From a virus (Duplodnaviria; Heunggongvirae; Uroviricota; Caudoviricetes), in IMG/VR virus record IMGVR_UViG_2609459769_000006: 15,351 nucleotides of DNA, one strand, 5' to 3'. Both the position numbers and the translations under genes were made by a program. Every line of letters starts with the position of its first letter. Position 1 is the stretch's first letter. A model generated the notes under the pieces. That model worked only from the letters and a program-made list of their open reading frames with translations, did not search any database and was not told the DNA's origin. Of the stretch, positions 880 through 14,593 are shown piece after piece.

Positions 880-893
880 ACTTTTCCACCAAT

Positions 894-924
894 AAAAAAA
901 GCCCGCAGCAGTGACGCCACGGGC
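894..924 (-). terminator. Putative intrinsic terminator between lom and stf
   Basis: Plus strand A-run 894-900 followed by GCCCG...CGGGC inverted repeat (901-905 / 920-924); on the minus strand this reads as a hairpin followed by a T-run, downstream of lom. Long loop, so only moderate. Confidence 0.4.
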
Positions 925-1030
925 TTCAGGACAGTGTAACTTTACGTTTCCTCAAACGCAGTTCACCCCATAAGGTGGATGAACCTGCGTATCATAACAA
1001 TATTTACAGAAGATAAATCGGCGTCTGTTG

Positions 1031-1630
1031 TCAGAAACGGTATCCGATACCAACAATAAATGCATCCGTTCGCCAGTCGCCACTACCGGAACCTTCATAA
1101 GCAAGGTCAATGGTCACGGATTCGGTCGGGTTAAACTGCACGCCAGCCCCCCACGCCAGAGACGTGTTGCTGTGGCGACCGTCATCACTTCCGGTCAGCA
1201 CATCGTGCGTTTTCCCCTTGTTGTCAGTTACGCGGAGATAATCCCCGGAGAAAGTCGACACACGGCTGTAAGCCACACCCGCCATCGCATACGCGCTGAA
1301 CCATTCATTCACGCGTACAGACGGCCCCGCCATCACGCTGAACCAGCGGTTACGCACGGAATCTTCATGCCAGCGGGTATCGCTGTAGCGCGTTTTTTGC
1401 TCATCCTCAGCATTGGCATAACTGAAGGACGTAATCAGCCCCAGCGCGTCCGTAAACTCATAACGGTATTTCACGTTAATCCCGTTCAGATCATCACTAC
1501 CGGGAACGTTCGTCGAGGCATGGAGATACCCCGCGCTCAGCGTGGACTGATGTTCTGCTGCACTCGCTGGCGTAGCAGCGGCGACCTGCCAGACTACTGC
1601 GGACAAAATAACAGCACATAATTTACGCAT
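1031..1630 (-). CDS. lom: Lom outer-membrane protein (Ail/Lom family beta-barrel)
   Basis: 199-aa ORF MRKLCAVILSAV...HQSTLSAGYLHASTNVPGSDDLNGINVKYRYEFTD...AYEGSGSGDWRTDAFIVGIGYRF: signal peptide plus near-identity to my recollection of lambda Lom, ending in aromatic residue typical of OM beta-barrels; GAGAGG SD upstream of ATG 1630. Confidence 0.9.
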   Translation of the reverse strand: MRKLCAVILSAVVWQVAAATPASAAEHQSTLSAGYLHASTNVPGSDDLNGINVKYRYEFTDALGLITSFSYANAEDEQKTRYSDTRWHEDSVRNRWFSVMAGPSVRVNEWFSAYAMAGVAYSRVSTFSGDYLRVTDNKGKTHDVLTGSDDGRHSNTSLAWGAGVQFNPTESVTIDLAYEGSGSGDWRTDAFIVGIGYRF

Positions 1631-1654
1631 AATTACCTCTCGCTTTTCTGCAAT

Positions 1655-1678
1655 AAAAAAGGCGCCATTTCTGGCGCC
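1655..1678 (-). terminator. Putative intrinsic terminator between J fragment and lom
   Basis: Plus strand A-run 1655-1660 then GGCGCCA-tttc-TGGCGCC perfect 7-bp inverted repeat (1661-1678); on minus strand a hairpin followed by T-run, located after the J stop (1698) and just before the lom RBS. Confidence 0.5.
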
Positions 1679-1697
1679 CGTATCTGGGTTATAAAAT

Positions 1698-3068
1698 TCA
1701 GCTAATCGTGATGCCTGCAGTGGCTTTCTTCATCACCACAACCAGCAAATCGCTGATACTTGCTGTGGGATACCAGTTATTTACCAGCCATGCTGACACC
1801 GAAAACTCCAGTGTCATGTGACCGTGACCGGCAGGCATATCAATAACACCACTGTAAATCAGCGTATTATCCAGCGCGGTACGGTTATAAATTTCAGCAC
1901 CGTTTTTCCGCACTATCAGACGGCATGAGGAGTAAATATCAGTATGCTCTTTCTCATGTTTAGCGCCGCTGAATGCCACCGCCGGAATAACAATCTGCCG
2001 GTCAAACGGCTGATCGTCATAAACCCTGACGGTAATGGTTCCTGATGGCCACCGCTCCGGTGCACGGGAGTCCCGGGGGAAAGCTTTGCCCACTGTTTTA
2101 ACGAGATCGCCTTCAATCTGGTTCGCGGACAATTTTCCCAGAACCCGACAGTTCTCGTTAATCGTGACGTTGTTGAGCGTCCCGGAGTTCGCATTCACGT
2201 TACCGCTGATATCGGCATTTTTCGCCGTCAGCCGCCCGTCCGGTGTCAGGGAAAATGCCGGAGGATTACCGCCGCTGGTAATGGTGGGAGCCGTCAGATA
2301 TTTCAGGAACACTTCATTCATAAATATCTGATCGCCCTGACCAACAAACATCGGCTTTGTGTTGCCATTCGCAGGATTAATCATCGCAATCCTGTCTGCC
2401 GCCAGCAGCACCTGACTCTGCATTCCTGCTGGCGTATTCTCAATACCGGCACCGATACCCGCAATATAAAGGCGTCCGTCCTGCATCTGCTGCAGTTTCA
2501 CGGCCCACATGCTGTTCAGGTTATTATTTGTATCAACCTGAACTTTCTGTATCTGCTGGATTGCCGCACTCTGATTTTCCAGTTTTTTATTGACGGTCTG
2601 CGTGATTTCATTGCTGACATTCGTAATGGACGTCCTGATTTCAGCCAGGTCCGGCGCAAGCTGACCGTTATCAATCTGCGTCCACAGCTCCTGGGCCAGA
2701 TGTGTTTTCCCGATTTCTCCTTTGAAAAAATCCAGGTAACCTTCCGCATCATCGCTCGCCCGACCGACAGCCTCCACGAATGCCGATTTGCCAACAGTAT
2801 TCACACTGCGGATATAAAAATAATAATCATGGCCCGGTTTGATATTGATACTGGCAGCTATCCAGTACAGCGCCGAGCCAAGATAGCGGGCTGCGGTTTC
2901 AACCTGCCTGATATCCGCAATCCGCTTTTCCGAGAACCAGAACTCAAACTGTATCCGTGGTGGGGTTGTCGAACTCATCCGCCACCGCAGGACCGTTATC
3001 TGACTAACCTGTATTTCAAAATCAGAGAGGACCGTCGTAAGGCTGCACGGGGAGAGTAATTCAATGAC
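1698..3068 (-). pseudogene. J: Host-specificity/central tail fiber protein J, C-terminal fragment (5'-truncated remnant, about 456 codons of open frame)
   Basis: Translation contains [24 protein letters not shown]...[50 protein letters not shown]...[45 protein letters not shown], recognised as the C-terminal region of lambda J. Frame is open upstream only to a stop at 3069-3071, so roughly 670 N-terminal codons of a full-length J are absent; first ATG is at 2978. Confidence 0.75.
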
Positions 3069-3408
3069 TCAAAACTATGAACTGATTGTGAAAGGGATCC
3101 GCAATTTTGAGAATAAAGTTACGGTAACTTTAGCGTTACGGGACAAAAAACGCTTTGACGGTGAAATTTTTGACCTGGACATCTCGCTGGACCGTGTTGA
3201 AGGTGCCGCGCTGGAGTTTTATGAGGCAGCAGCCAGAAGGAGCATCAGACAGGTCTTCCTGGATGTTGCTGCCGGGTTATGTGAAGGGGATGAGCAGTCG
3301 CCGGAAAAGCGCCCCGTAATTTTAGAGGCGCAGGATGTGTTGATAACCTACAGAGGAAAACTACCGGGAATAATTACGGGTTCTCTGAAGAGTCCGCCGA
3401 AATGGTAA
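3064..3408 (+). CDS. Hypothetical protein (114 aa), sits at the J truncation junction
   Basis: ORF with GGGGAGAG SD-like sequence 7 nt upstream of ATG 3064; soluble-looking protein; no family recognised. Confidence 0.45.
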
Positions 3409-3646
3409 TTTTACCAGCATATTTTTCATCCAGTAATACAGCAAGCCGCCTGAAAGAGTCTTGTTGTTCCTGAGACCATTTGGGATTGCATGATTCAAAC
3501 TGGATTGATGCCAGCGTTGATTGCATCTGTTCCCTTGGAATTGAGAATGCCAGATATGAGAAGGCGACGGTAAGGGTATTCACGTCTTCCCGAAGCCTGG
3601 AAATGCTGTCGAGCAACTCCTGTAGAGAAATGGTGTTATTGTCCAT
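3374..3646 (-). CDS. Hypothetical protein (90 aa)
   Basis: ORF with GAGGAT SD 6 nt upstream of ATG 3646; 3' end overlaps the 3' end of the convergent 114-aa ORF by 35 nt; no family recognised. Confidence 0.4.
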   Translation of the reverse strand: MDNNTISLQELLDSISRLREDVNTLTVAFSYLAFSIPREQMQSTLASIQFESCNPKWSQEQQDSFRRLAVLLDEKYAGKITISADSSENP

Positions 3647-3751
3647 AAATAATCCTCATGATTGTATTGACCTGTTAGCAGCCTGAGGCAACAGGCTGGA
3701 ACTGATAAACATATCCAGGGCTCAGAAACCGATAAATCCTGATAAATATCC

Positions 3752-4315
3752 ATGAACGCAAAAATCAGATACGGCCTGTCGGCTGCCGTTCTGGCGCTGA
3801 TTGCCGCTGGTGCGCCTGCGCCTGACATTCTCGACCAGTTTCTGGATGAAAAGGAAGGTAACCACACCACGGCATACCGTGATGGCGCGGGTATCTGGAC
3901 CATCTGCCGCGGTGCCATCCTGGTGGATGGCAAACCTGTCGTTCCGGGCATGAAGTTGTCGAAGGAAAAATGCGACCGGGTTAACGCCATTGAGCGTGAT
4001 AAGGCGCTGGCATGGGTGGAGAAAAACATCAGAGTGCCATTGAGTGAACCCCAGAAACGGGTGATCACCGGGATTGCGTCAACGCCTTCTCCGGATCGGG
4101 ATGGTGACATCCTGGAGCCGGAGGGCGCGGAGTTTGGCAGTGCGATCCCGTTTCTCTGGCAGCATGACCATTCCCGCCCGGTGGGGCAGTGTACGGTACG
4201 CCGGGTCAGCGAAGGGCTGGAAATCACGGCAACACTGGTGAAGCCCGTACCGGATATGCCGTCGCAACTGGCTGCCCGGCTGCCGGGCCAGCCACTCCAT
4301 TCAGTTTCGGAGTAA
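3752..4315 (+). pseudogene. Chimeric remnant: SAR-endolysin (GH24 phage lysozyme) N-terminus fused in frame to a prohead protease (HK97-type) N-terminal fragment
   Basis: Residues 1-105 (nt 3752-4066): signal-anchor-like LSAAVLALIAAGA followed by lysozyme catalytic E-8aa-D-5aa-T pattern (EGNHTTAYRDGAGIWT). Residues from about 106 (nt 4067-4315): IASTPSPDRDGDILEPEGAEF...PFLWQHDHSRPVGQ, resembling the N-terminus of caudoviral prohead proteases. Too short for either full enzyme; no holin upstream; no clear SD. Confidence 0.55.
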
Positions 4316-5309
4316 CCGTGGCACTGCCGGCGGTGAACACCAGCTCCAGCGTCTGCCAGTCGTTACTGTAATTCCCGAACTCGCCCAACTTTGTGTTTCC
4401 TGCTTTCCTGTGATGCATCAGATTCAGTTTGCCGTCTGTGGTCTGGGTGAAGAACGACATCAGGAACGGGTTACCAGTCCCGGTCATCGTCACGACGTCA
4501 GGTAACGCTACATCGGTATACAGATAAATTCCCAGACCGAACTGGTTGTTGGTCAGTGCGCCTGACAGTCGAAACTTACAGCTCAGTCTGCCACCCCGTG
4601 TCAGCAGGGAGACTGCGTCATCCACCGGATGCATCAGGGACCAGGTTTTATTGCTCTGCTTGGTAACCTTAAACACACCATCTTCCAGCGCAACACTGCC
4701 GCCGGTGATGGTCCAGCCCTGCGCAGCAGCCTCTCCGGCTGTCGGCAGCAGGGAGACTGTACGAACGGATGTGTCACCATCAGACGGCCCCGATGGCGTG
4801 TCGCCGCCGGGCGAGGGTTTAATCTCCGGTGCGGTACCGCTGATGAAGGCGCTGGTTCGACCAACTGCGTTCAGAATAGCGGTTGCCAGGCGATCCGAAA
4901 TAATGCCCCTGCGCGCCCATGAACTGAAATGTGTCGGACGATTTGACGATACCCAATTACCATTACTACGGGATTGCGCGCCGTAATAACCTGCATCAGC
5001 AATATCCGGGTCTTCTGCCGGTAAGTTGGTGGGCGTGTTGTTGCCGTTACCGTCGGTCATGAACGGCACAAAGAAAACGTTGTCGCTCTCCCTGTTTTTG
5101 TACGCGCCGTAGACGGAGTCATACTGTGTGCCGTATGTGTTTTTCCAGTAATACGTCGTGTCGCCACAAATCCACGGTACAACTGCAGCACTGCCGCCAT
5201 GGCACTGCGCCGCCAGCCCGGCAAGGTCAGCACGGAACTGCTGTACCATTGCAAGAAATGCTGCTGGCTGCTGGGCGTACCAGAACAGATCGAAGTAATA
5301 CCCGCACAT
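4224..5309 (-). CDS. Hypothetical two-domain protein (361 aa): Cys/aromatic-rich N-domain, Pro/Ser/Gly linker, C-terminal Gly/Thr-rich probable beta-rich domain
   Basis: Longest and most protein-like ORF in this GC-rich stretch; start ATG overlaps the stop of the upstream 92-aa ORF in a TAATG arrangement (5305-5309), suggesting translational coupling; linker PEIKPSPGGDTPSGPSDGDTS. No family recognised. Confidence 0.6.
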   Translation of the reverse strand: MCGYYFDLFWYAQQPAAFLAMVQQFRADLAGLAAQCHGGSAAVVPWICGDTTYYWKNTYGTQYDSVYGAYKNRESDNVFFVPFMTDGNGNNTPTNLPAEDPDIADAGYYGAQSRSNGNWVSSNRPTHFSSWARRGIISDRLATAILNAVGRTSAFISGTAPEIKPSPGGDTPSGPSDGDTSVRTVSLLPTAGEAAAQGWTITGGSVALEDGVFKVTKQSNKTWSLMHPVDDAVSLLTRGGRLSCKFRLSGALTNNQFGLGIYLYTDVALPDVVTMTGTGNPFLMSFFTQTTDGKLNLMHHRKAGNTKLGEFGNYSNDWQTLELVFTAGSATVTPKLNGVAGPAAGQPVATAYPVRASPVLP

Positions 5310-5587
5310 TACCTCCAGATCCGTTGCTGGAATGTGCGGGACGGACGCGCTGGCCGTTCTGAGTAAGGGAGCCTGACGGAGATTATCCAGTGACGGTAGT
5401 CGAGGCTAAGGGCTTTTTTAACCTCGCATCCGCGCCCGCGGTAACACTGAATGAGCCATTCAGCCTGTTCTTCGGTGCAGGGGTCGTGCTGATACCAGTC
5501 AGATTTGAATGCATGAGAACGCCGCCCGTGCCTGCTGGCAGGGGCGGCAGAGTTATCCGAATTGTAAAATTTGGTATCGTGCGCCAT
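5309..5587 (-). CDS. Hypothetical protein (92 aa), first gene of a coupled pair
   Basis: ATG at 5587; stop overlaps start of the 361-aa ORF (TAATG). Contains Cys-containing segment DPCTEEQAEWLIQCYRGRGC. Weak SD. Confidence 0.5.
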   Translation of the reverse strand: MAHDTKFYNSDNSAAPASRHGRRSHAFKSDWYQHDPCTEEQAEWLIQCYRGRGCEVKKALSLDYRHWIISVRLPYSERPARPSRTFQQRIWR

Positions 5588-5854
5588 CTGTTTTCTCTGC
5601 TGGCGCAGCAGGTGCCAGTTGTTCAGGCTGACGTATGAAGTATAAATAAACTGGCTCCAGTGTAAAGCCCCACCTTAATGGAATAAAAACCAAACAACAG
5701 ATTGCTGGGATAAAAATACAACGCTTATTATTAAAAGCGGTTAGATAAATTAAATTTTAATGTTATGCAAATCTGCCAGATTAGCATAATATTTCATTTG
5801 AAAACCGCTGAAATAACAATCTTATCGGGATTAATCATATTAAGGTGAGTAAAT

Positions 5855-5941
5855 ATGGAAAACAACAAATCTGCACATTACGCTCCTTTTTTATCTGTAA
5901 TACTTTTTGTATTTTGTTGTGTATGGGCGGTATTTTTATAA
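5855..5941 (+). CDS. Candidate small hydrophobic peptide (28 aa, MENNKSAHYAPFLSVILFVFCCVWAVFL)
   Basis: Not in supplied ORF track (below size cutoff). AAGGTGAG SD at 5842-5849, 5 nt before ATG 5855; polar N-terminus then 17 hydrophobic residues; stop TAA 5939-5941 followed 20 nt later by a hairpin terminator; lies in AT-rich intergenic DNA convergent with the protease gene. Codons verified by hand. Confidence 0.3.
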   Translation: MENNKSAHYAPFLSVILFVFCCVWAVFL

Positions 5942-5961
5942 AACACACCCACAAATAAATC

Positions 5962-5981
5962 AAACCCGCTACAGCGGGTTT
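5962..5981. terminator. Putative bidirectional intrinsic terminator
   Basis: Perfect 8-bp inverted repeat AAACCCGC-taca-GCGGGTTT; T-rich sequence follows on both strands (plus: gatttatat; minus: gatttatttgtgggtgtgtttt). Positioned between the protease stop (5996-5998) and the small plus-strand ORF stop (5939-5941). Confidence 0.5.
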
Positions 5982-5995
5982 GATTTATATAGTTG

Positions 5996-8260
5996 TTATA
6001 CGGAAACTGGCACACGAGCAGGCAATGGATAGTGAGCCCAGTTATTAGCATTTAAAGCTCTTACGCCATCAGCATAAACTTGTGTGTTTCCATCTAATGA
6101 TTTTAAAGTTACTACAATAGTTACAGGTAAAGGCTCCATTAAGGCCGGTTCATTCGCTCTCAACGTTGTTTTAGCTTGAAGAGCCCAGTTACCCGAAGTA
6201 ATTCCTTTATTAAATGCCTTGCGATGAATTTTTACTGGTGACCACTTTCCACCATGCTCAATTTGAGCTCTCTCATATCCAGATTGACCGTTTTCTCCTT
6301 CCATAGGTACTTTTCCTTTTATAGTATTATTCTCAATTAAGCCAAAACTTAGCTCTACGTTCGCGCGAACATATTCACTGCCGGCATTAGGGTTCAGTGG
6401 TGGTGCATATGCAGCAGTAATTACAATCTCACCTTTAAATTTTCCATTTTGAATAAGTGCCGATGGTATGGGATAGTTTTCCTTTCTCCACCTCACCCCA
6501 GGAACCAAGAATGTTTGGAAAATCAGAGTAAACCTATCATCACTATCATATAAGGTCTCAATAACCTCATTAGGAATTCCCGCTCCCAAATAGCGTCTTT
6601 CACTTGGCGAGTAATCAGGAGAAGATAATTGAGCGGAATGAATTAATAATGCTTTAATCAATGATGGTGAAACATTAAAGTCTGAATTAGTGGCTATTCT
6701 CTGCCATGTATGCGCAGCTAAACTTGCCACAATTGGAGCAGCAAAACTAGTACCAAAATTAGAGCAAAGCCTATTATCTGGCCCTACGACCTTTAAACTG
6801 CTTGCTCCTACATTCCAAGGTCTATGAACCCCACCGCCAGCATGGATTATATCTGGCTTTGGAGTAAATACAGGCCCAGGGCCACGACGAGTATATGGTG
6901 TCGGTGTTCCAATTTCACTTAAAGCATCATTAGCTTCCATATGAGAAACTGAACCAACTGTTAGTGCTCGGACTGACTCTCCAGGAGAGGAAATTAAATC
7001 AGCACCTCCAAGCGGATCAGGATTTGGCCATGTACGTATAGGTTCATCTACATAATTACCTGCAGCAACTACAAACAAAATACCAAATTTATCGCTGAGC
7101 CGATCTAACTCCATCGCAAAATCACTAAACATCTGCTCATTACATGGTCCGCCTCCCAAAGATAAATTCCAGACTTTTATATCTGGTCTTTTATTTACAG
7201 CATCTGCTAGCCTCAGAATTAAATCTGATATATAAGATCCATTTTCATCTAAAGCACAAACATCATGGATTTTAGATTTTGTATCAGGAATCCATGGATG
7301 ATTGTCATTTAAAAAATGAGCGCCTGATATCAATGAAGACACCATAGTCCCATGTTCATAACTCGTATCAGGAGGAATTACGTATGTTTCCCTACTCACT
7401 ACCCAAGGAGTAATTGTTGCCGCGATGGGGCTTACCCCAGTGTCAAATACAGCAACAATGGGTAATTCTTCTGATGGTACGGGAAAGCTATTTGTTTCAA
7501 TGCCAACAGAATCACTTACACTAACCGGGAATGCTGAATATTTTGGTTCTGGAATTAACGTTCTTATACCCGGGTAATCAATGAGAATGTCTAATATATA
7601 TCTATCATTTGGGGATAAATCCATTATCCTTAATAAGGGAAGACCACATTTTGGTCTAATCTCATCATATTTAACTCCGTGTTGTTCTAATATAGAAATA
7701 ACGTTTTCATAGTTGTTGTAAGTTGCATCTTCACCTGTGTACTCAAATAGTCGTACAAGGATGTTTGATGATTCAAACAAACCATCAGTGCCTCCTGGAA
7801 CCTTCCTATTCTCATCCCAAGGTTCAATGCGCTCAATCGCGCTTAGATTAGCCAAAATCGCTTTAATATTCCGATGTAAAATGACTGACTCTAATACGTC
7901 AAAACAGCCGGCATGAGCAGCAACCAACATTTCATCTATTTTGGCATGACCGGCATTTTGCAATCCAGCCTCTTGAGCAATTTTGTTCGGCCTATGCGTT
8001 TTGGCTATTCCCTGGTCTCTTAATTTGAAAACCAAAGTACCCAAGCTTCCAGGGTACTCTGAAAGTTTGGATTCTAAATAATGTTTACTGGTTGTTAAAT
8101 TTCTTACTAGCCCTTGTCTATATTCGGCTGTTACATCAACCAATACCTTTGCCCCACCGCCAGCGTTTACTATTGCACCCAAGTCACTACTGGAAAAAGG
8201 GATTCTTAACATTGGGTTTGTAACTTTTGCGTTACTAAACTGTGTACCCCTTCTGCTCAT
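5996..8260 (-). CDS. Large subtilisin-like serine protease (peptidase S8 fold) with uncharacterised N- and C-terminal extensions, 754 aa
   Basis: Canonical subtilase order and motifs: Asp in VAVFDTGV (D273), His in YEHGTMVSS (H303), oxyanion Asn in VVAAGN (N401), Ser in GTSFAAP (S505). About 255 residues before and about 195 after the catalytic domain with no recognised motifs. ATG 8260 preceded by AGGAG; start overlaps ATPase stop by 26 nt. AT-rich codon usage. Confidence 0.85.
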   Translation of the reverse strand: MSRRGTQFSNAKVTNPMLRIPFSSSDLGAIVNAGGGAKVLVDVTAEYRQGLVRNLTTSKHYLESKLSEYPGSLGTLVFKLRDQGIAKTHRPNKIAQEAGLQNAGHAKIDEMLVAAHAGCFDVLESVILHRNIKAILANLSAIERIEPWDENRKVPGGTDGLFESSNILVRLFEYTGEDATYNNYENVISILEQHGVKYDEIRPKCGLPLLRIMDLSPNDRYILDILIDYPGIRTLIPEPKYSAFPVSVSDSVGIETNSFPVPSEELPIVAVFDTGVSPIAATITPWVVSRETYVIPPDTSYEHGTMVSSLISGAHFLNDNHPWIPDTKSKIHDVCALDENGSYISDLILRLADAVNKRPDIKVWNLSLGGGPCNEQMFSDFAMELDRLSDKFGILFVVAAGNYVDEPIRTWPNPDPLGGADLISSPGESVRALTVGSVSHMEANDALSEIGTPTPYTRRGPGPVFTPKPDIIHAGGGVHRPWNVGASSLKVVGPDNRLCSNFGTSFAAPIVASLAAHTWQRIATNSDFNVSPSLIKALLIHSAQLSSPDYSPSERRYLGAGIPNEVIETLYDSDDRFTLIFQTFLVPGVRWRKENYPIPSALIQNGKFKGEIVITAAYAPPLNPNAGSEYVRANVELSFGLIENNTIKGKVPMEGENGQSGYERAQIEHGGKWSPVKIHRKAFNKGITSGNWALQAKTTLRANEPALMEPLPVTIVVTLKSLDGNTQVYADGVRALNANNWAHYPLPARVPVSV

Positions 8261-9389
8261 ATGCTCCTGACTCCTTCAGAATGTTTGAAATTACTCTTGA
8301 TGTAAGTTTGTACAAATTAGCAAGAACTCTGATAGAAAATAATTTTTTATCTTTAGAACGTAACCAACGAATTTCATCTTCGTAAGTGCTTAAATTTACA
8401 CCTTCCATAAGCGATTGCGCAAGATACAAACGCCTATACAATTTATGGTGATTTATCACACTTGCACCTTCAATAACTGCATCCCTACGTGCATCCAAGC
8501 TCACCTGTTCAATTATTGCTCCGGATAATCCCTCCGATTTTCTTGATAAATCACTTAAATCTAGATCGCTACATATCATATTCTTTAAACGATTTTTCCA
8601 AATTAACTCTCTCTGATGTATGTCAGGCAGAGGCATTGGAATTCTGAAGCTAAATCGCCTCCAGATTGCAGGATCCAGAAGTTGCTCATGGTTAGTTGAG
8701 GCAATAATTACCGTATCCTCTGATGCCGCATCCATATTCTGCAATAGTGAAATGACAACTCGCTGAAGCTCACCTATATCTCTCTCATTACCTCTTGCTC
8801 CAGCTAAAGCATCAAATTCGTCTAAAAAAAGCACTGATGGCCTCTGCATTACATAATCGAAAACCTGTCTAAGATTTTTGCTGGTTTGTCCCAATAAACT
8901 ACTAATCAAAGTATCGCAACGCACTGTAAGAAGTGGAAAATCTAAGCGGGTAGCGATGTACTTAGATAACATAGTCTTACCTGTTCCTGGCTTTCCATAC
9001 ACGAGCATACGACTCGGCAATGCTGCATCAGCTTTAACAAACTCATCATAACGTTGAACATTAGTGATAAACTCTTCAACACGGGTACTGATTGCTGCAG
9101 GCAGAAAAATCTCTGAACTGTCTAATTTAGGATAACTGACATCAACAGTGTTGAGTCGACTATCAATATCTACCGGTAATGAGCCCAGAGATATCCCACC
9201 TCCAGCCCTTTGAGCTCCTGCCAACGCCTGGGGAGCTCTAAGCAACCTTTCTCTTATCATTCTGGCTTGCTTGACCTCCCCTTTTTGTTCGAGCTTATCT
9301 GCCAGCAACCCAGCATAATTACTAGCCATCGAAGCATTTGCCTTTGTTGCACCTTCAATGATTTTTAACACTTCTGATAAATAATCCAT
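8235..9389 (-). CDS. AAA+ ATPase (classic AAA clade), 384 aa
   Basis: Walker A GKPGTGKT (res 132-139), Walker B VLFLDEFD (186-193), sensor-1 STN (231-233), second region of homology with arginine pair PAIWRRFSF (240-248). GGGAG SD 7 nt upstream of ATG 9389. 3' end overlaps protease start (operon). Confidence 0.85.
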   Translation of the reverse strand: MDYLSEVLKIIEGATKANASMASNYAGLLADKLEQKGEVKQARMIRERLLRAPQALAGAQRAGGGISLGSLPVDIDSRLNTVDVSYPKLDSSEIFLPAAISTRVEEFITNVQRYDEFVKADAALPSRMLVYGKPGTGKTMLSKYIATRLDFPLLTVRCDTLISSLLGQTSKNLRQVFDYVMQRPSVLFLDEFDALAGARGNERDIGELQRVVISLLQNMDAASEDTVIIASTNHEQLLDPAIWRRFSFRIPMPLPDIHQRELIWKNRLKNMICSDLDLSDLSRKSEGLSGAIIEQVSLDARRDAVIEGASVINHHKLYRRLYLAQSLMEGVNLSTYEDEIRWLRSKDKKLFSIRVLANLYKLTSRVISNILKESGAYEQKGYTV

Positions 9390-9582
9390 TCAACACTCCC
9401 ACAACAAAAAGCCACAGCAATCAAAAAATGAGCACACAGAATCAAAATACTCTCTAATCGTAACGCATTTTGAGATTTTTGATACGTTTTTTTGGGATTA
9501 TGTAACGCCAAATGGTCATTTTGTGTCAGAAAAATAAATCTTAGTACCGAGAATATGTAGCTTCCATCCTTCATCGTTCTAT
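9390..9582 (-). promoter_or_regulatory. AT-rich upstream region of the ATPase-protease operon (probable promoter region, not mapped)
   Basis: 193-nt AT-rich non-coding spacer between the stop of the 143-aa gene and the ATPase start; contains TTGATT/TTGATTG-like -35 candidates on the minus strand. No precise -10/-35 assignment claimed. Confidence 0.3.
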
Positions 9583-10014
9583 TCATCCCTGATCTCCAAG
9601 CCTCTCTCGAAAACCATTCTGATAAAACGCCAGCACACGCTGCATAACTTCGCTCTTCCGGCACTCGCGACAGATTATGTTCAGACGCCTGTCGTAGCGG
9701 CGTATTTCTCCGTCTGGTAATGACCAGATAAGGTCCGGATCAACCACAGATGGTTTCTTCACCTTTGCCCTGGATAGTTTTTTGCGGGCATTTTGCCAGT
9801 CCTTACGAGCCTGTTCAGACGGGAATAACCCGTAACCAGAGTTGTATACATCGCCACTGGCAACCAGCTCTCTGGCGAGAACGCTCATCAGATATCTTGT
9901 CGCACCTGTCTTGGCTTCCAGTTGCCGTAACGTCTCGCGCCCACTCCGGCGTACTAGCTCAACAACCTGCCCTTTAATTTTTTCCCGCTCTTCTTGTGTA
10001 AATACTTTTGCCAT
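9583..10014 (-). CDS. Hypothetical protein (143 aa from ATG 10014; ORF track used an upstream TTG), possible winged-helix N-terminus
   Basis: GGAGG SD 7 nt upstream of ATG at 10014-10012; begins MAKVFTQEEREKIKGQVVELVRRSG...; basic C-terminal half with single CxxC. Immediately follows the stop of the upstream gene (10030-10032). Confidence 0.5.
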   Translation of the reverse strand: MAKVFTQEEREKIKGQVVELVRRSGRETLRQLEAKTGATRYLMSVLARELVASGDVYNSGYGLFPSEQARKDWQNARKKLSRAKVKKPSVVDPDLIWSLPDGEIRRYDRRLNIICRECRKSEVMQRVLAFYQNGFRERLGDQG

Positions 10015-10029
10015 AAGCGCCTCCGGCAA

Positions 10030-10791
10030 TCACTTTTCCGATACAACACGGCGGGAAGAATCAGTAATCTGTCGAACAATATCCCGGTGCTTGTTCAGCT
10101 CCCGCAGCGCGGCGCAGACTCGCTCCCACTTCTGGACATGATTTTTCGCCCGACGCAGTTCGCGGTTTGCCATATGCAGTGATGGTAAAACCAGGTCATC
10201 CGCTCGCGTTTCAGTAAACGATGGCAGCGACTGCACAATGTCCGCCACAGTTTCTGTTTTAATATCTTCCTGTGTTGCAGCCTCCTGTACTGGTAACGCA
10301 ACACCTGCGGTATGAGGAAAGGCCTTACCATCAGTTTCCGCTACCGATGCTGCTTTCGGCTCTGCTGGTAAATTATCGCCCGGTATGCAGTAACGAAATT
10401 TACCGCCCTGATTTACGCGAATCAGACGACCTTTGCTGATTGCCATTGCCAGCGTTGAAGCCACTTTGCGTGATGTGGTACCAAACAATGTAGCCAGCTC
10501 ATCAGCCATTTGTGGTCCTCGTTGTTCAATCGTCGCGGTTAAATCGCACTCTGAGATTTTCGCTACTGTTGCTGTGGTGATTTCTTCCGGCAGTTCTGCC
10601 TGCGCTGGCTGTTCCTGCTGAACGTTGTTATCAGCCACACGCCAGGTGTACGCGCTTTTATCAACAAAACCAGCCTTTTTCAGTTCCCATAGTTCGTTCA
10701 GCACTTCTTCACGACTGATATCAAGTCGCGCAGCAAGTTCTATGGATGTGGCTTTTCCCATTGCTTTCAGTGCGTCAAAAACAGTCTCCAT
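10030..10791 (-). CDS. Hypothetical phage protein with apparent tandem winged-helix-like segments (253 aa from ATG 10791; alternative upstream ATG at 10842 gives 270 aa)
   Basis: GGGAGA SD 9 nt upstream of ATG 10791 and no overlap with DnaC-like gene; the longer start would overlap the upstream gene by 29 nt. N-terminus [43 protein letters not shown] resembles a wHTH. Occupies the YdaW position of Rac-type prophages. Confidence 0.55.
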
Positions 10792-10813
10792 TAAATTTTT
10801 CTCCCGGTAAAAA

Positions 10814-11560
10814 TTACTTCGCAATTCCTGGCTGGACGACATTCGGACGCCAGCTCTCCCAGTTAAAATTCACCCATAGCCCGCCGTTCATGGTCATGCG
10901 ATCCATAATCCGCTCGCCGAGCAATGTTTTCATGGCCTCATAGTTCAGGTTTGTCAGCATCCCCACGCTGCGCATCGACGCTGTCCGGCGATCAACAATC
11001 TGGTGCAGTACCACCTGCTCGTTTTTCGTCTCGCGCTGAATGCCAATTTCATCAAGAACCAGCAGATCCACTTCGCACAGTTCCCGCAAAAATTTTTCGC
11101 CTGACTGCCCATCGTCATAGCTGGCGTGGAGGGCACTCATAACATCAGCCACGGTAACCACAATCACTGTCTGACCGTCTTTCAGCAGGCGATTCCCGAT
11201 AGCTGCTGCTAAGTGGTTCTTCCCGGTACCAGGTTTTCCGCTAAACGCGAAATTTGTGCATCCGGTCATCAGTTCATCAGCGATAGATTTCGCCTGGCTC
11301 AACGCGTATCGCTGACCGTCGTTCTGCACCTGGTAATTCGCAAACGAGCATTTACGGTGCAACGGCTGGATGCCTGAGCGATTCAGAATTTTTTCCACCC
11401 GCAACTGGCGATTCAGGCGGTTGATCTCCTCGCTACGTTTCTGGCCTTCAGCAAGTTGCCACTCGTGCCACTCCGCTACCGTTCTGAATGGGGCGGTTAC
11501 ATGTGGCGGAGCCAGTCTTCGGATACGTTCAAGAACGCCGCCTGCCGCAATGTTTTTCAT
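10814..11560 (-). CDS. ydaV: DnaC-like replicative helicase loader (AAA+), Rac YdaV-like
   Basis: Walker [16 protein letters not shown], Walker [10 protein letters not shown], and C-terminal half closely resembling host DnaC ([23 protein letters not shown]). Symbol assigned by synteny, size and recollection, not by alignment. Confidence 0.8.
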
Positions 11561-11566
11561 GACACG

Positions 11567-12529
11567 TCACCCCCTGAATCCCGGCGGTATTTCAGTGTCC
11601 GGTTCAGAAATGTGATTCACGCAACGCTGCGCAGGCAAACGCCCCAGGCGGATAACCAGTTCATCCCATTTTTCCCGGAGTTTTGCCGGACTCATGATGT
11701 TTTTTACCCAGAACGAATCCCGCTGGAGACGCCCAAACATTTCACAAATTTGTCTGTGAGTTCTGCCATCCAGCATCCGCATTGTGCGAACGTCATTGGC
11801 CCATGCTGTCCAGTTGGGTTCTTTCGGTCTAGTGATCTCGCCATCATAGCTGGCCGCCTGCTCGTAAAGACTCACGATTCGTCCCCAGATCCACTGTGCG
11901 CACACCAAATCTTCCTGACTTCCCCACTGGCGTTTTTTCGCACTGAACACAACCGCGTCAGGGTGTCGGGTTAAAAAATCCTGTTCAGCCGTCTGCGGGT
12001 CCGGTTGCGAAGCGTCCGGACAAGAAGATCTTTTATCTGACGGATCAGGTTTTAATACTGACGGATCGGGGTCAATCATCGGCCCCCTAATCGGCAGTTT
12101 TTTATCAACAGTTGATCCATCAAAATTTGACGGGTCAACCGTTGAGGGGTCAATATTTGACGGGTCAACTGTTAACGGGTCATTTTTTGCCGGGCTAATT
12201 TTTCTTTTCGGTTTATATGACTCACGCGCCGCCGCCGCAGCTGCTTCGAGTTTTTCCACATTAAGCCGATAGATATTGCTTACATTACGCCCACCGACCT
12301 TACGCTCTTCCTTCGTCAGCCAGCCCTCTTTCGCCAGTTCTGCAATAGCCGATTTCACTGTGGATTCACTTCTTGCACCGATCTGACGCCGGATAGTTTC
12401 AATGGCAGGCCATGACACGCCCTCGTCATTGCTGTAGTCTGCAAGACGGGCCATAACCGCCACCCTGGATAAGATCATGCCGGTGAAGGCGCACCCTTCC
12501 CAGACAAGACCATGAAGCTTGCTGCTCAT
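11567..12529 (-). CDS. Phage replication initiator protein (O-like / YdaU-like): N-terminal wHTH, repeat-encoded linker, C-terminal domain
   Basis: ORF track start at 12544 is GTG; an ATG at 12529 preceded by a G-run is used here. N-terminal HTH-like region (VSWPAIETIRRQIGARSESTVKSAIAELAKEGWL), linker with repeated DPSxxDPSTVDPSN motifs encoded by DNA direct repeats, stop 7 nt before DnaC-like start. Confidence 0.7.
   Translation of the reverse strand: MSSKLHGLVWEGCAFTGMILSRVAVMARLADYSNDEGVSWPAIETIRRQIGARSESTVKSAIAELAKEGWLTKEERKVGGRNVSNIYRLNVEKLEAAAAAARESYKPKRKISPAKNDPLTVDPSNIDPSTVDPSNFDGSTVDKKLPIRGPMIDPDPSVLKPDPSDKRSSCPDASQPDPQTAEQDFLTRHPDAVVFSAKKRQWGSQEDLVCAQWIWGRIVSLYEQAASYDGEITRPKEPNWTAWANDVRTMRMLDGRTHRQICEMFGRLQRDSFWVKNIMSPAKLREKWDELVIRLGRLPAQRCVNHISEPDTEIPPGFRG
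12037..12183. repeat. Iteron-like direct repeats inside the replication initiator gene (candidate origin of replication)
   Basis: Core TGACGG(A/G)TCA at 12038-12047, 12059-12068, 12128-12137, 12158-12167, with related GGGGTCAA / ACGGGTCA units between them at about 15-bp periodicity; several units are near-palindromic (TTGACGGGTCAA). Lambdoid ori iterons classically lie within the O-gene linker region. Confidence 0.5.
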
Positions 12530-12551
12530 AAACCCCCCGAACACCGTGCTT

Positions 12552-12977
12552 TTAGTGCATCACCACAGCATTCCCTGCCGGGCCGCCGCGATTCATCTGG
12601 TCATACAAAACAACCGCTGACGCAACAAAATCATCGACATCCTTCACCAGCCGATCCCTCCGTTCGACGATCTCACGGTAATATTCAGAACTGTGGCTGC
12701 GCATACGGGCCACCAGCAAAGGCGGCATCGCCTTTTCGATCGCCGGTAACAGAGCCTGCATTTTTTCAACAGCATCAGGGGTGTCTTTATCCAGCCAACG
12801 GAAAATTTTCTGGGTATTACGGGCCAGGGCTTCCGGATGGCTGTCGTCATACAGTTCCGGGAACGTCATTCCCAGCTCGAAATACGCTTTGGTAATTTTC
12901 GCAGCCGGCACTTTTTCGCCGTCCGGATGCGCCCAGACATTCATCGCCATGCGGATGTGTTCATGCTTGATTTTCAT
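12552..12977 (-). CDS. ydaT: YdaT-like protein (reported functional analogue of CII in Rac/CP-933P-type immunity regions), 141 aa
   Basis: Position directly after the Cro-like gene and before the replication genes; size about 140 aa; sequence MKIKHEHIRMAMNVWAHPDGEKVPAAK... matches my recollection of YdaT. AGGAG SD 8 nt upstream of ATG 12977. Not verified by alignment. Confidence 0.6.
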   Translation of the reverse strand: MKIKHEHIRMAMNVWAHPDGEKVPAAKITKAYFELGMTFPELYDDSHPEALARNTQKIFRWLDKDTPDAVEKMQALLPAIEKAMPPLLVARMRSHSSEYYREIVERRDRLVKDVDDFVASAVVLYDQMNRGGPAGNAVVMH

Positions 12978-13242
12978 GAATCAAGCTCCTAGAAAGTGGT
13001 TGTGTTAACGTTTTGGTATCTTCCAGCTCGGGCCAAATATTCATCCAATCAAAAGGCCTTAGTTGCTGACGTGTAACTTCACCATTACTGGCTCGCTCAA
13101 TAAGGACACATAACGATGCCCCTAACACTTGACCTTTACTCAATGCCTTTCTTAGATAACCGATGCTGGTACCACACTCGCATGCAAACATACGCTGTTC
13201 ATCTGACGAAAGAGAATTGAGAAATATTCTTAATTCTTCCAT
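12961..13242 (-). CDS. ydaS: Cro-like HTH regulator (YdaS-like), 93 aa
   Basis: First gene of the rightward-type operon, divergent from repressor; AAGGAG SD 6 nt upstream of ATG 13242; HTH-like segment CGTSIGYLRKALSKGQ. Symbol by synteny. Confidence 0.6.
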   Translation of the reverse strand: MEELRIFLNSLSSDEQRMFACECGTSIGYLRKALSKGQVLGASLCVLIERASNGEVTRQQLRPFDWMNIWPELEDTKTLTQPLSRSLIHENQA

Positions 13243-13342
13243 AGCTACTCCTTAGTAAACACAGCAAAGAATACCCACAGGTAAACAAAAGTCAATACCC
13301 ACAGGTTGTTTACCTTGCGGTAATCGCATCTATTATTTACCT
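13243..13342. promoter_or_regulatory. Divergent promoter/operator region (OR-like) between Cro-like gene and repressor
   Basis: Three copies of a 12-mer, consensus TACC(C/T)A(C/T)(A/G)GG(T/A)(A/T): 13272-13283 TACCCACAGGTA, 13296-13307 TACCCACAGGTT, 13339-13350 TACCTATGGACA (overlaps repressor start codon). Minus-strand promoter candidate TTGACT (plus coords 13290-13295), 16-nt spacer, TATTCT (13268-13273). Plus-strand TATTAT at 13331-13336 only 6 nt before the repressor ATG. Confidence 0.55.
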
Positions 13343-13762
13343 ATGGACAAATATGAATTTAGACGACAGCAACTCATCAAAATTCGTGATGAGAAATGCG
13401 ATGGTAAAGCGGTTAACGTGGCCAGAAAGATCGGGCGCGAGCCTTCTTATGTATCAAGAATGTTGTACCCAGAGGGGAAAAAGGGAAAAAAACGGATCGC
13501 TGATGATATGGTGGAGATTATCGAAGAGTCCTTTGGGTTACCCCGGGGATGGATGGATGGTATCGTTTCATCATCAACGAACACAGCCTCCAGTTATGAA
13601 ACAAGGGTTCTAACGCCACGACAACGTATTTTTTTAGATCTCTTAGACGAACTGCCAGAAAGTGAAGCGGATAAATTATTAAAAACTCTTGAAGAGAAAA
13701 AACAGTATTACAATATGATCTACGAAGAAATCCGTAAAAAGAAAGCACAAAACGCATCATAG
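13343..13762 (+). CDS. Prophage repressor (CI functional analogue, RacR-like), HTH N-terminus, no LexA-type peptidase domain
   Basis: 139-aa ORF divergent from Cro-like gene; HTH-like GKAVNVARKIGREPSYVSRMLY; C-terminus charged/coiled-coil-like without the Ser/Lys dyad region of S24 autopeptidases; flanked on both sides by operator-like 12-mers. No in-frame upstream start exists. Confidence 0.7.
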   Translation: MDKYEFRRQQLIKIRDEKCDGKAVNVARKIGREPSYVSRMLYPEGKKGKKRIADDMVEIIEESFGLPRGWMDGIVSSSTNTASSYETRVLTPRQRIFLDLLDELPESEADKLLKTLEEKKQYYNMIYEEIRKKKAQNAS

Positions 13763-13804
13763 CTCACCAAACAACTAGTCACCAGTTAAGACACCGCAAA
13801 AATT

Positions 13805-13841
13805 TACCCATGGGTATTTACTTTTTAAATACCTATGGGTA
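13805..13841. promoter_or_regulatory. OL-like operator pair / candidate leftward-type promoter downstream of repressor gene
   Basis: Perfect palindrome TACCCATGGGTA (13805-13816) and TACCTATGGGTA (13830-13841), 25 bp centre to centre, same consensus as the OR sites; plus-strand TTTACT (13817-13822), 17-nt spacer, TATCCT (13840-13845) as a possible promoter overlapped by the second site. Confidence 0.45.
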
Positions 13842-13946
13842 TCCTTCTTTTCATACCAACCCACCCCGCCCCACAGAATGCAGGGCAATACTTCGAGTTA
13901 CCAGGCAGTGGTCAGGGGTTAAGTAGCCAGCCCGAGGCGTAAGAAC

Positions 13947-14180
13947 ATGACGGCAGGGTTCAACTTTAATAACTATGCAGCAGGTTTTTGTTCCGCTACC
14001 CCGGCGTTAAGGGGAAATGAGGTCAACATGGATATGCTCAATCTTGGCAACAACGAATCTCTGGTATGTGGCGTGTTCCCCAACCAGGACGGCACGTTTA
14101 CCGCGATGACGTATACCAGAAGCAAAACGTTTAAAACTGAAGCTGGCGCGCGTCGCTGGTTAACCAGAAACACTGACTGA
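13947..14180 (+). CDS. Small hypothetical protein (77 aa; alternative start ATG 14028 gives 51 aa)
   Basis: ORF downstream of the OL-like sites; internal ATG at 14028 has a GAGG SD 5 nt upstream. Stop TGA overlaps the next ATG (TGATG at 14178-14182). Occupies the ydaF/ydaG-like position of Rac-type prophages; no sequence recognition. Confidence 0.4.
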   Translation: MTAGFNFNNYAAGFCSATPALRGNEVNMDMLNLGNNESLVCGVFPNQDGTFTAMTYTRSKTFKTEAGARRWLTRNTD

Positions 14181-14593
14181 TGAGGTTGACGATGGAATTT
14201 AAAGATTTACCAGTACCATTCCAGGAAATGGCATCGAATGTGGTTCGCTCTCAACTGGCGACTCTTGACCTGAGTACCGTAGAAAAAGAAACCATCGATA
14301 CTATATCCGGTAACGTGCGTCGTGCCTTTATAGGTCTGTATGAAGAGAAGCGCCTATTCGGCGGACAGAATTCGCCTGAAAACAAGAATCAAGCAAATGA
14401 TGAGAAGCTGAAACACATTATCGCCTTACTTTTGGAAGACGCAAAACGTCTACAGCAACTGGAACCAAATGCAGGCACAGAGGCCCGCATTTGGATTGCC
14501 ATGAAATCACTCAAATGTGAAAGCAGTGATTATTTCAAAACAACAATTAAAACTACTCAACTTTCGGGAGAGCTACTGAAGAAATTGCCATAA
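14180..14593 (+). CDS. Hypothetical protein (137 aa)
   Basis: Start coupled to upstream stop (TGATG); alternative ATG at 14192 with GAGG SD. No family recognised. Confidence 0.5.
   Translation: MRLTMEFKDLPVPFQEMASNVVRSQLATLDLSTVEKETIDTISGNVRRAFIGLYEEKRLFGGQNSPENKNQANDEKLKHIIALLLEDAKRLQQLEPNAGTEARIWIAMKSLKCESSDYFKTTIKTTQLSGELLKKLP

Follow-up and report, generated by a model that had tools for sequence, protein, structure and literature searches.

The ietAS genes and their surroundings

The stretch of viral DNA analysed here (the window, 15,351 nt) corresponds to a decayed lambda-like prophage of Escherichia coli that has lost Q, RusA and DUF968 and whose lysis and tail genes are rearranged. 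An AT-rich island of this prophage holds two adjacent genes, ietA and ietS, which together with their neighbouring elements are as follows:

5309-5587, minus strand: conserved hypothetical gene of 92 aa (PHROG 1212), which bounds the slot on the left in Qin-type backbones
5646-5954 (to 5980 as a spacer), minus strand: AT-rich non-coding backbone module, within the compositional island and not ietAS-specific
5955-5988, minus strand: perfect 16+16 nt hairpin (core AACCCGC-TGTA-GCGGGTT, then a T-rich tract), 8 nt past the ietS stop
5996-8260, minus strand: ietS (iteS in RefSeq), a 754-aa S8 subtilase, reported toxin/effector
8235-9389, minus strand: ietA (iteA in RefSeq), a 384-aa classic-clade AAA+ ATPase, reported antitoxin/regulator partner
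9390-9511, minus strand: cassette-linked upstream region of ietA, ~81% identical in nucleotides to a Citrobacter ietAS locus up to 9511
9512-9612, minus strand: right junction segment, with ~70 nt of lineage-specific spacer and the Ren-like gene's final ~9 codons
9583-10014, minus strand: Ren-like (DUF977) gene, which bounds the slot on the right and comes last in the replication module

IetA matches the Pfam AAA family (2.6e-30) and, over its full length (residues 1-374), the PADLOC model of IetA (8.9e-143), and reaches 526.6 bits against the NCBIfam equivalog IteA_antiphage (NF042959, cut-off 510). It carries a Walker A motif (GKPGTGKT, residue 132) and a Walker B motif (VLFLDE, residue 186), and a search of PDB sequences shows it to be p97/Cdc48 D2-like. 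IetS, in turn, matches Peptidase_S8 in Pfam (5.6e-26), the full-length PADLOC model of IetS (3.3e-300) and the NCBIfam equivalog IteS_antiphage (NF042956) with 1041.1 bits over a cut-off of 900; its catalytic triad is formed by the Asp of VAVFDTG (269), the His of HGT (303) and the Ser of GTSFAAP (503), with the oxyanion Asn in NLSLG (365). No loss-of-function changes were seen in either gene, whose catalytic and Walker motifs are intact. The start of ietS overlaps the stop of ietA by 26 nt, and the disposition of ietA upstream of an adjacent, co-oriented ietS is kept in all the homologous loci examined. The names iteS and iteA had already been given by RefSeq on identical DNA, and the ietAS pair of the island is an already known two-gene anti-phage/toxin-antitoxin (TA) system.

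Base composition of the island

A first, sequence-only reading of this DNA had pointed to the region 5640-9582 as AT-richer than the phage genes on both sides, with strongly AT-rich intergenic spacers, and regarded it as horizontally acquired cargo inserted in the prophage with its own promoters. The computed values bear out the compositional part of this proposal: GC content is 0.390 at 5640-9582, against 0.533 at 1-5587 and 0.510 at 9583-13242, and falls to 0.343 in the left spacer (5588-5995) and 0.347 in the right one (9390-9582). In a sliding-window profile, each 400-nt window within 5601-9600 has a GC content of 0.34-0.44, compared with 0.54-0.61 at 3801-5600 and 0.48-0.54 at 9601-12800. 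Among windows of equal length across the whole sequence, the GC minimum starts at 5641, and an unbiased maximum-likelihood segmentation sets its two breakpoints at 5630 and 9585, with a gain of ~97 nats over a single composition, so that 5640 and 9582 were nearly exact. Codon usage deviates as well: third-position GC is 0.27 in ietS and 0.33 in ietA, versus 0.44-0.62 in the six flanking phage genes (0.62 in the two to the left of the island and 0.44-0.61 in the four to its right, on the replication side), and rare codons amount to ~10% in ietA and ietS versus 1.4-6.5% in five of these six genes, the Ren-like gene (9%) being the exception. Homologues in Citrobacter and Pseudomonas mangiferae also show a low GC content relative to their hosts. 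The immunity region of the window (13000-14800) is likewise AT-rich (GC 0.40-0.43), a feature that is thus not exclusive to cargo.

As a compositional edge, position 5640 holds; as a cargo edge it does not, since 5646-5980 is common to prophages that lack ietAS. The ietAS-specific DNA, or cassette proper, spans about 5981-9612, and on its left side the compositional border lies ~340 bp beyond the real edge of the cargo.

A variable slot in lambdoid prophages

The cassette sits in a variable slot of a Rac/Qin-type lambdoid prophage, between the Ren-like last replication gene and the nin/Q-side genes. On the left, homology to other prophages around the 92-aa gene runs from 5277 to 5604-5646, and a DUF1367 gene takes the place of this gene in Rac-type backbones. 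On the right, the Ren-like gene (Pfam DUF977, 2e-28; PHROG 142 “Ren-like exclusion protein”, 2.3e-46) adjoins ietA in all the ietAS loci inspected. The island with its nearest flanks (5580-10100) recurs in L001, a prophage of Rac type, with 99.1% identity, and in L002, of Qin/DicB type, with 100%. The cassette is also present in the isolated phage vB_EcoS-683R6, in 22 IMG/VR contigs and in 78 of the 5426 complete E. coli genomes, and other lambdoid phages carry diverged copies (72-81% nucleotide identity) in the corresponding slot between replication and nin genes. In E. coli, prophages are frequent carriers of ietAS (bioRxiv 10.1101/2022.08.21.504612).

Other prophages with homologous flanks carry different cargo at this position: hok with NsnABC (L003), hokD with small ORFs (L004), hokD with QueH (L006), ParDE (L007), rem, hokD, a methyltransferase and a SMEK-domain protein (L008), hokD with an HNH endonuclease (L009), or a truncated hok alone (L013), with hokD in the slot of L003-L006, L008 and L009. 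Occupation by hokD and nothing else also occurs. A co-linear ietAS in all the relatives is thus contradicted, and the rarity of the cassette, together with other cargo between homologous flanks, supports the proposed reading as horizontally acquired cargo, whose content is a mobile defence/TA cassette. No truly empty slot was found. In the window, tblastn gave no match to HokD and an Rfam search gave only DicF; only the terminator stem resembles the 3′ end of hokD.

The AT-rich module on the left (5646-5980) also lies 3′ of hokD in several hundred ietAS-free genomes, where unannotated copies, 86-93% identical, lie between hokD and either the 92-aa gene or the DUF1367 gene. It contains a conserved Shine-Dalgarno followed by a 12-codon ORF with its ATG at 5877 (MCRFVVFHIYSP, alignment of seven sequences), a terminator-like hairpin at 5739-5722 detected by a promoter/terminator scan, and a conserved promoter-like element, TTTACA-16-TATACT, at 5666-5639, directed toward the downstream nin/Q-side genes. 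Neither RNA covariation nor any Rfam family above threshold was detected in 5646-5954, and the module is not Rem.

Junctions of the cassette

The hairpin at 5955-5988, an inverted repeat with 100% complementarity that was also picked up by a terminator scan, is a bidirectional intrinsic-terminator-like site and would, at the same time, be the left recombination junction. Homology to the ietAS-free hokD loci begins at 5980, and homology to the Citrobacter ietAS locus stops at 5989. The hokD transcript region of ietAS-free prophages ends in this same stem, which is also present 3′ of ietS in Citrobacter, so that it may have come either with the cassette or from hok. The right junction, as judged from sequence comparison, lies within the final ~9 codons of the Ren-like gene: in BLAST, matches to prophages that lack ietAS start at 9604-9620, the Ren-like tail at 9583-9612 (NGFRERLGDQG*) moves together with the cargo, and the C-terminal tails of DUF977 proteins vary by cargo type past a conserved ...AFYQ.

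The cargo character of the island was thus supported, but not its insertion into an empty site, since the region corresponds rather to the exchange of one cassette for another in a slot with several alternative occupants, and is free of insertion scars. Recombinational replacement between lambdoid phages, with one crossover at the hok-type terminator hairpin and a second within the 3′-terminal part of the Ren-like gene, would have brought ietAS in at the expense of the hokD toxin gene and of other cargo that related prophages carry.

Expression and predicted function

A candidate promoter upstream of ietA is formed by a -35-like GTATCA (9485-9480), a 17-nt spacer and a -10-like TACGAT (9462-9457), with an A-tract just upstream, and a GGGAG ribosome-binding site lies 6 nt ahead of the ietA ATG at 9389. 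Its sequences CGTATCAA and CGTTACGAT are invariant across five diverged ietA upstream regions that elsewhere are barely alignable, whereas its fit to the sigma-70 consensus is weak (7 of 12 positions); a standard consensus scan upstream of ietA gave no sigma-70 site and missed the 9485-9457 pair. The idea of a cargo with its own promoters is therefore weakly supported by an invariant pair of poor consensus; the terminator hairpin after ietS is clear. In the lysogen, the operon would probably be transcribed from this weak conserved promoter, ~70 nt upstream of ietA, and transcription should end at the hairpin. As no terminator separates ietAS from the replication genes, read-through from the early operon would be expected on induction.

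IetAS has been described as a TA with a protease toxin and an ATPase antitoxin, whose anti-phage mechanism is still unknown (PMC13069673; PMC5006074), and in Bacillus cereus a phage protein triggers a homologue that acts by abortive infection (bioRxiv 10.1101/2022.08.27.505566). By analogy with published homologues, IetA would restrain the toxic protease IetS in uninfected cells, and a phage protein made during infection would release or activate IetS, whose proteolysis would abort the infection and sacrifice the cell. Loss of the element would likewise be penalised by this TA behaviour.

Alternative explanations

Altogether, we consider it very probable that the island is a horizontally exchanged cargo cassette for IetAS, with the AAA+ ATPase IetA and the S8 subtilisin-like protease IetS encoded in one overlapping operon. 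The low GC content could instead be intrinsic to the early and regulatory DNA of lambdoid phages, as the composition of the immunity region and the widely shared left module (5646-5980) may suggest. However, this is a very improbable explanation for two large coding genes with such divergent third positions, which are missing from 98.6% of the complete E. coli genomes when flank-gene matches occur in ~80% (4312/5426), and which homologous backbones replace with other genes. Presence/absence data rule it out for 5981-9612, and intrinsic backbone composition is a fair description of 5646-5980 alone. Even less probable, to an extreme degree, is that a transposase or a site-specific recombinase inserted the cassette as a discrete mobile element. 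IS3-family elements do strike the locus, interrupting ietS in L034 and lying within the ietAS match of strain F2_81, but there are no target-site duplications or terminal inverted or direct repeats around 5980 or 9610, no transposase or recombinase gene within 5300-10100, and both junctions, the terminator stem and the Ren-like 3′ end, fall in sequence common to lambdoid phages, as is typical of recombinational module exchange. These observations largely refute a discrete mobile element, and the lack of duplications and terminal repeats argues for recombinational replacement over transposition.

A different question relates to the selected role of the exchanged cassette, which could be mainly addiction (post-segregational killing) to stabilise a prophage remnant rather than anti-phage defence, with IetAS functionally replacing the usual modules of the slot, either hokD (type I TA) or RelE/ParDE (type II TA). 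The earliest description of IetAS was as a TA that stabilises a plasmid, and its SGI1 homologue stabilises SGI1 (PMC13069673; PMC5006074); TA genes dominate the slot in related prophages; and, on a panel of 29 phages, Wu et al. reported limited activity for all single systems except Gabija, the ietAS of ECOR52 included (bioRxiv 10.1101/2022.08.21.504612). Moreover, the prophage in the window is defective, yet its cassette has been kept intact despite the loss of the late-gene activator, which agrees with selection acting on the cassette and not on the phage. Nevertheless, both roles are not mutually exclusive, homologues show anti-phage and abortive-infection activity (PMC13069673; bioRxiv 10.1101/2022.08.27.505566), and non-TA defence candidates such as NsnABC share the slot, so that we regard addiction as the main role as rather unlikely.

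Relation to known systems

IetAS, reportedly described as an anti-phage defence system by Gao et al. in 2020, has the same two-gene layout as the cassette described here, where the S8 protease gene comes after that of the AAA+ ATPase and overlaps it. The proteins of the cassette are full-length, above-cut-off equivalogs with intact catalytic motifs, and there is no structural difference between the two systems. As the cassette is already recognised by RefSeq, PADLOC and NCBIfam, the locus itself brings no new biology. The AT-rich island was, however, a correct annotation flag for a prophage-borne defence/TA cassette, and the comparative work supplies its borders at the base level (about 5981-9612).

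The IetA/IetS pair of pTiC58, a plasmid of Agrobacterium, and the homologous S026/S025 of SGI1 are likewise a protease toxin and an AAA+ antitoxin that aid the maintenance of a mobile element, but they reside on a plasmid and a genomic island instead of a lambdoid prophage. The SGI1 and pTiC58 proteins are distant from each other, with 36-50% identity (PMC5006074).

With regard to the slot, hokD loci and the Qin region of E. coli K-12 show the same TA-occupied location, from the DUF968/92-aa gene side to the replication module, the same terminator stem and, in some hokD loci, the same AT-rich downstream module. The Qin gene order of K-12 is ydfU-rem-hokD-relEB, but the window lacks hokD, rem and relBE and has ietAS there instead. 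Of the defence cassettes, IetAS and NsnABC are seen in this slot, and the SMEK-domain and HNH proteins match PADLOC models more weakly and in part; a limited literature search found no paper describing the slot. It is possible, if doubtful, that the Ren-like/nin-Q junction represents a dedicated, formally undescribed hotspot of cassette exchange, where hokD, ParDE/RelBE, NsnABC, IetAS and SMEK-type genes would alternate between fixed anchors, the last ~9 Ren-like codons on one side and the hok-type terminator with the AT-rich regulatory module on the other. If so, its uncharacterised occupants (small ORFs, DUF7167, DUF5677, DUF4406) would be candidate new defence genes, and the promoter-like element and mini-ORF of 5646-5954 would form a regulatory element, so far unannotated, for the nin/Q operon. 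More defence candidates may be sought at the ren/nin junction of Rac/Qin-type prophages. The arrangement resembles the defence hotspots of P2/P4 (Rousset et al. 2022, PMC9122126) and the “moron”/nin mosaicism of lambda, with a fixed site and conserved flanks between which defence and TA cassettes alternate, whereas the P2/P4 hotspots belong to another phage family and to a different slot from the ren/nin junction of Rac/Qin-type lambdoid phages.

An ATPase-protease operon in an AT-rich island

The prophage carries an intact ATPase-protease operon in a slot where cargo is readily swapped. Two minus-strand ORFs, overlapping by 26 nt, fill the island:

8235-9389, minus strand: ietA, AAA+ ATPase of 384 aa (Pfam AAA 2.6e-30; PADLOC IetA 8.9e-143)
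5996-8260, minus strand: ietS, S8 subtilase of 754 aa (Pfam Peptidase_S8 5.6e-26; PADLOC IetS 3.3e-300)

Both products are matched end to end by the PADLOC models, and both score above the cut-offs of the corresponding NCBIfam equivalogs (526.6 bits for IteA_antiphage, cut-off 510; 1041.1 bits for IteS_antiphage, cut-off 900), while identical DNA is labelled iteA/iteS in RefSeq. IetA retains intact Walker A and Walker B motifs, and IetS its catalytic Asp/His/Asn/Ser residues. A sequence search of solved structures revealed a likeness of IetA to the D2 domains of p97/Cdc48; no solved IetAS structure was found in this way, IetS retrieving only generic subtilases and IetA only p97-type ATPases.

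A further minus-strand ORF of 99 aa with a GTG start (9365-9664) spans the spacer upstream of ietA and overlaps both neighbouring genes. It appears as “kinase (fragment)” in the phage record ON470595, has neither RefSeq annotation nor PADLOC match, and is probably an erroneous call that covers the regulatory region. Elsewhere, the cassette has been inactivated independently in two cases: an IS3-family element interrupts ietS in an IMG/VR contig with a 77%-identical ietAS (L034, 5130-6975), and the ietAS match of E. coli F2_81 (hit H57) contains an IS3 transposase.

Composition of the island

The sequence-only reading had proposed a cargo island at 5640-9582, AT-richer than its flanks and bounded by AT-rich spacers, and calculation places it there almost to the base. 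GC content is 0.390 over this interval, against 0.533 in 1-5587 and 0.510 in 9583-13242, with values of 0.343 and 0.347 in the spacers at 5588-5995 and 9390-9582. In the sliding profile, every 400-nt window across 5601-9600 falls between 0.34 and 0.44, compared with 0.54-0.61 in 3801-5600 and 0.48-0.54 in 9601-12800. The lowest-GC stretch of island length in the entire window starts at 5641, and a two-breakpoint maximum-likelihood fit, which improves on a single composition by about 97 nats, sets the borders at 5630 and 9585. Codon usage, measured as third-position GC and as the fraction of rare codons, follows the same trend: third-position GC is 0.27 and 0.33 in the two island genes versus 0.44-0.62 in six flanking phage genes, and the rare-codon frequency is about double that of most flanking genes, the Ren-like gene being comparable (9%).

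There is a second AT-rich zone at 13000-14800 (GC 0.40-0.43), which holds the divergent ydaS-like gene and 139-aa ORF together with the small genes past them. Since this immunity region is AT-rich too, low GC alone is not diagnostic of cargo in this window.

Borders and exchange of the cassette

On the right, BLAST homology to prophages lacking ietAS starts at 9604-9620. The Ren-like (DUF977) proteins are conserved up to the residues AFYQ and then end in tails of some 8-10 residues that are specific to the type of cargo: NGFRERLGDQG with ietAS, and GDVRYLLK or GNARYLLK, GNFQEAVL and others with other cargo. This places the right crossover within the 3′ end of this gene (9583-9612), about 25 bp past the compositional border, and the Ren-like protein tolerates the swapping of its tail.

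On the left, homology to hokD-type loci, running from the 92-aa (PHROG 1212) or DUF1367 gene, reaches 5980 in three of them (L003-L005) and stops at 5604-5646 in four others (L006-L009). The segment shared with the hokD loci starts at the terminator downstream of hokD (stem AACCCGC/GCGGGTT). In the window a hairpin at 5955-5988, 8 nt past the ietS stop codon, shares this stem, has another loop and is extended to perfect 16-nt arms; it is a strong candidate for a terminator. Homology to the diverged ietAS of a Citrobacter freundii prophage (81% at the nucleotide level) covers 9511-5989, which defines the core cassette. Judged from these alignments, the ietAS-specific DNA spans about 5981-9612, so that the right border first proposed at 9582 holds closely, while the left one at 5640 turns out to be the edge of a separate module. 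The cassette is flanked by neither a target-site duplication nor direct or inverted repeats, which points to recombinational exchange of modules rather than to transposition.

The cassette occurs in more than one type of prophage. The island and its nearest flanks (5580-10100) are found at 99.1% identity in a Rac-type prophage with racR, kilR and recE (L001), and at 100% in E. coli strain 102651 (L002), which has a Qin/DicB-type backbone in common with the window. It is also carried by the isolated phage vB_EcoS-683R6 and by 22 IMG/VR contigs. Copies with 72-81% nucleotide identity occupy the equivalent position in other lambdoid phages, between the replication genes and DinI/RusA, and the ietAS homologues of Citrobacter and Pseudomonas mangiferae are likewise GC-poor relative to their neighbourhoods.

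Alternative occupants of the slot

Of 5426 complete E. coli genomes, only 78 hold at least 80% of 5588-9582, against 4312 with matches to the flanking genes. Relatives of the prophage do not all carry the same genes at this position, in agreement with the proposal of cargo, as in loci L003-L009 the space from the Ren-like gene to the 92-aa or DUF1367 gene is taken up by other genes.

Occupants of the slot in comparison loci
L003 (E. coli HBUT-L): hok and a complete NsnABC candidate defence system, the latter at 7231-10434 of the locus between the Ren-like gene and hok (PADLOC NsnA 3.5e-123, NsnB 8.9e-122, NsnC 1.1e-89)
L004: hokD and small ORFs, DUF7167 among them
L006: hokD and QueH
L007: ParD/ParE and three hypothetical genes
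L008: rem, hokD, a methyltransferase and a SMEK-domain protein
L009: hokD with HNH and DUF4014 genes
L013: truncated hok fused to the Ren-like gene, nothing else

The HNH protein is an endonuclease, and DUF5677 and DUF4406 proteins were also seen in the slot. A search with the two flanks concatenated found no truly empty slot, the flanks being separated by no more than about 1 kb in just four genomes; the one of these that was examined (L013) was rejected as an empty site, its truncated hok-Ren-like fusion being a deletion derivative. No remnant of Hok was found in the window.

A separate module on the left

The interval 5646-5980 is a separate AT-rich module with its own distribution, conserved, unannotated and non-coding (5646-5954, minus strand). 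Its occurrence at 10 of 40 evenly spaced ranks, sampled among 2469 matching records, suggests that several hundred E. coli genomes without ietAS carry it, and it is also present in a few isolated phages. Comparison of seven copies, one just 74% identical overall, revealed the following blocks:

5877 (ATG), minus strand: Shine-Dalgarno and 12-codon ORF MCRFVVFHIYSP, of 9 codons in the divergent copy
5739-5722, minus strand: terminator-like hairpin, conserved in the seven copies
5666-5639, minus strand: invariant promoter-like TTTACA-16-TATACT, facing the nin/Q-side genes

Rem was considered as an occupant of this spacer and rejected: neither tblastn of Rem nor a sensitive blastn search returned a meaningful match to 5560-6060. 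A structured RNA is likewise unsupported: the covariation term of RNAalifold over the seven copies is -0.06 kcal/mol, a permissive Rfam search of the spacer gave just terminator-driven matches below threshold, and at the gathering threshold the only Rfam match in the window is DicF, outside this spacer. Phage lambda has a terminator-rich region upstream of its nin genes, and by analogy the left module may be regulatory DNA of the prophage backbone.

The prophage around the cassette

To the right of the island, the Ren-like gene (PHROG 142, “Ren-like exclusion protein”) is followed by a DUF1627 gene, a DnaC-like ydaV, an HTH replication-initiator-like gene and, further right, ydaT-like and ydaS-like genes; the divergent 139-aa ORF sits at the repressor position and has no family match. 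Together these genes make up the early-right operon of a Rac/Qin-type lambdoid prophage. On the left side are the 92-aa conserved hypothetical gene and then a truncated DUF6645 gene. Other placed features are:

1031-1630: lom
1698-2978: C-terminal fragment of tail-tip J
15165-15216, plus strand: DicF antisense sRNA (Rfam RF00039, 76.7 bits)

DicF identifies the prophage as Qin/DicB-type on its immunity-distal side. Most other carriers of ietAS are Rac-type prophages (racR, kilR, recE).

The part of the window from 5277 rightwards matches strain 102651 at 99.99% identity. About 5.85 kb of that strain, between the 92-aa and DUF6645 genes, are absent (junction at 5277-5279), comprising DUF968, RusA, the Q antiterminator, a DNA methyltransferase, three tRNAs and the 5′ part of the DUF6645 gene, so the prophage has no late-gene activator; the 361-aa ORF at 4224-5309 is a mechanical product, the truncated DUF6645 gene fused at the junction. 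Because two IMG/VR contigs (L021 and L025) have exactly the same junction, the deletion is natural and not an artefact. The left third (1-4280) is a scrambled remnant: the tail-tip J fragment, lom and a tail-fibre N-terminus (1-2958) directly abut pieces of the lysis region, whose fragments at 2997-3400 (DUF1327/YdfR) and about 3741-4066 (lysozyme) are inverted with respect to strain 102651. The arrangement of 1-5700 occurs in none of the complete E. coli genomes of the collection. Deletion and rearrangement thus describe a decayed, Q-less host element, yet one with an intact ietAS.

Expression signals

The island had also been expected to bring its own promoters. A standard promoter scan found no sigma-70-like site in 9390-9620, and 5300-10100 has fewer promoter-like matches than shuffled sequence (5 versus a mean of 11.8). 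The alignment of five diverged regions upstream of ietA contains the invariant blocks CGTATCAA and CGTTACGAT, which give a -35-like GTATCA (9485-9480) and, after 17 nt, a -10-like TACGAT (9462-9457), behind an A-tract; this conserved pair is a plausible candidate for a weak promoter or operator. A terminator scan found no minus-strand terminator between the Ren-like gene and ietA, so read-through from the early operon is expected on induction.

Function and relation to known systems

The island is very probably a defence/toxin-antitoxin cassette. The original description of IetAS is of a toxin-antitoxin pair that stabilises pTiC58, with the protease as toxin and the ATPase as antitoxin, and a homologue in SGI1 stabilises that island (PMC13069673, PMC5006074). 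Addiction could accordingly be the main role of ietAS here, a reading compatible with a defence/toxin-antitoxin cassette, but one we consider rather unlikely. On the side of defence, anti-phage activity of IetAS needs the protease activity, its mechanism being “unknown” as of 2026 (PMC13069673), and a Bacillus cereus homologue shows abortive-infection behaviour with a single phage protein as trigger (bioRxiv 10.1101/2022.08.27.505566). The E. coli ietAS has been noted as prophage-located, the ECOR52 copy alone having limited activity (bioRxiv 10.1101/2022.08.21.504612). If the cassette works as its homologues do, IetA would keep IetS in check until a phage trigger releases proteolysis by IetS and the infection is aborted; the toxicity of IetS could also serve as an addiction for the element.

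That defence and toxin-antitoxin cassettes alternate at fixed positions in prophages is a well-established finding in other phages, P2 and P4 being an example (PMC9122126). Limited literature searches found no paper on this lambdoid slot, and the description of the slot and its junctions is the sole mildly new element. The ietAS locus itself is already known and correctly annotated in RefSeq, since the gene pair has every defining feature of IetAS that could be tested.
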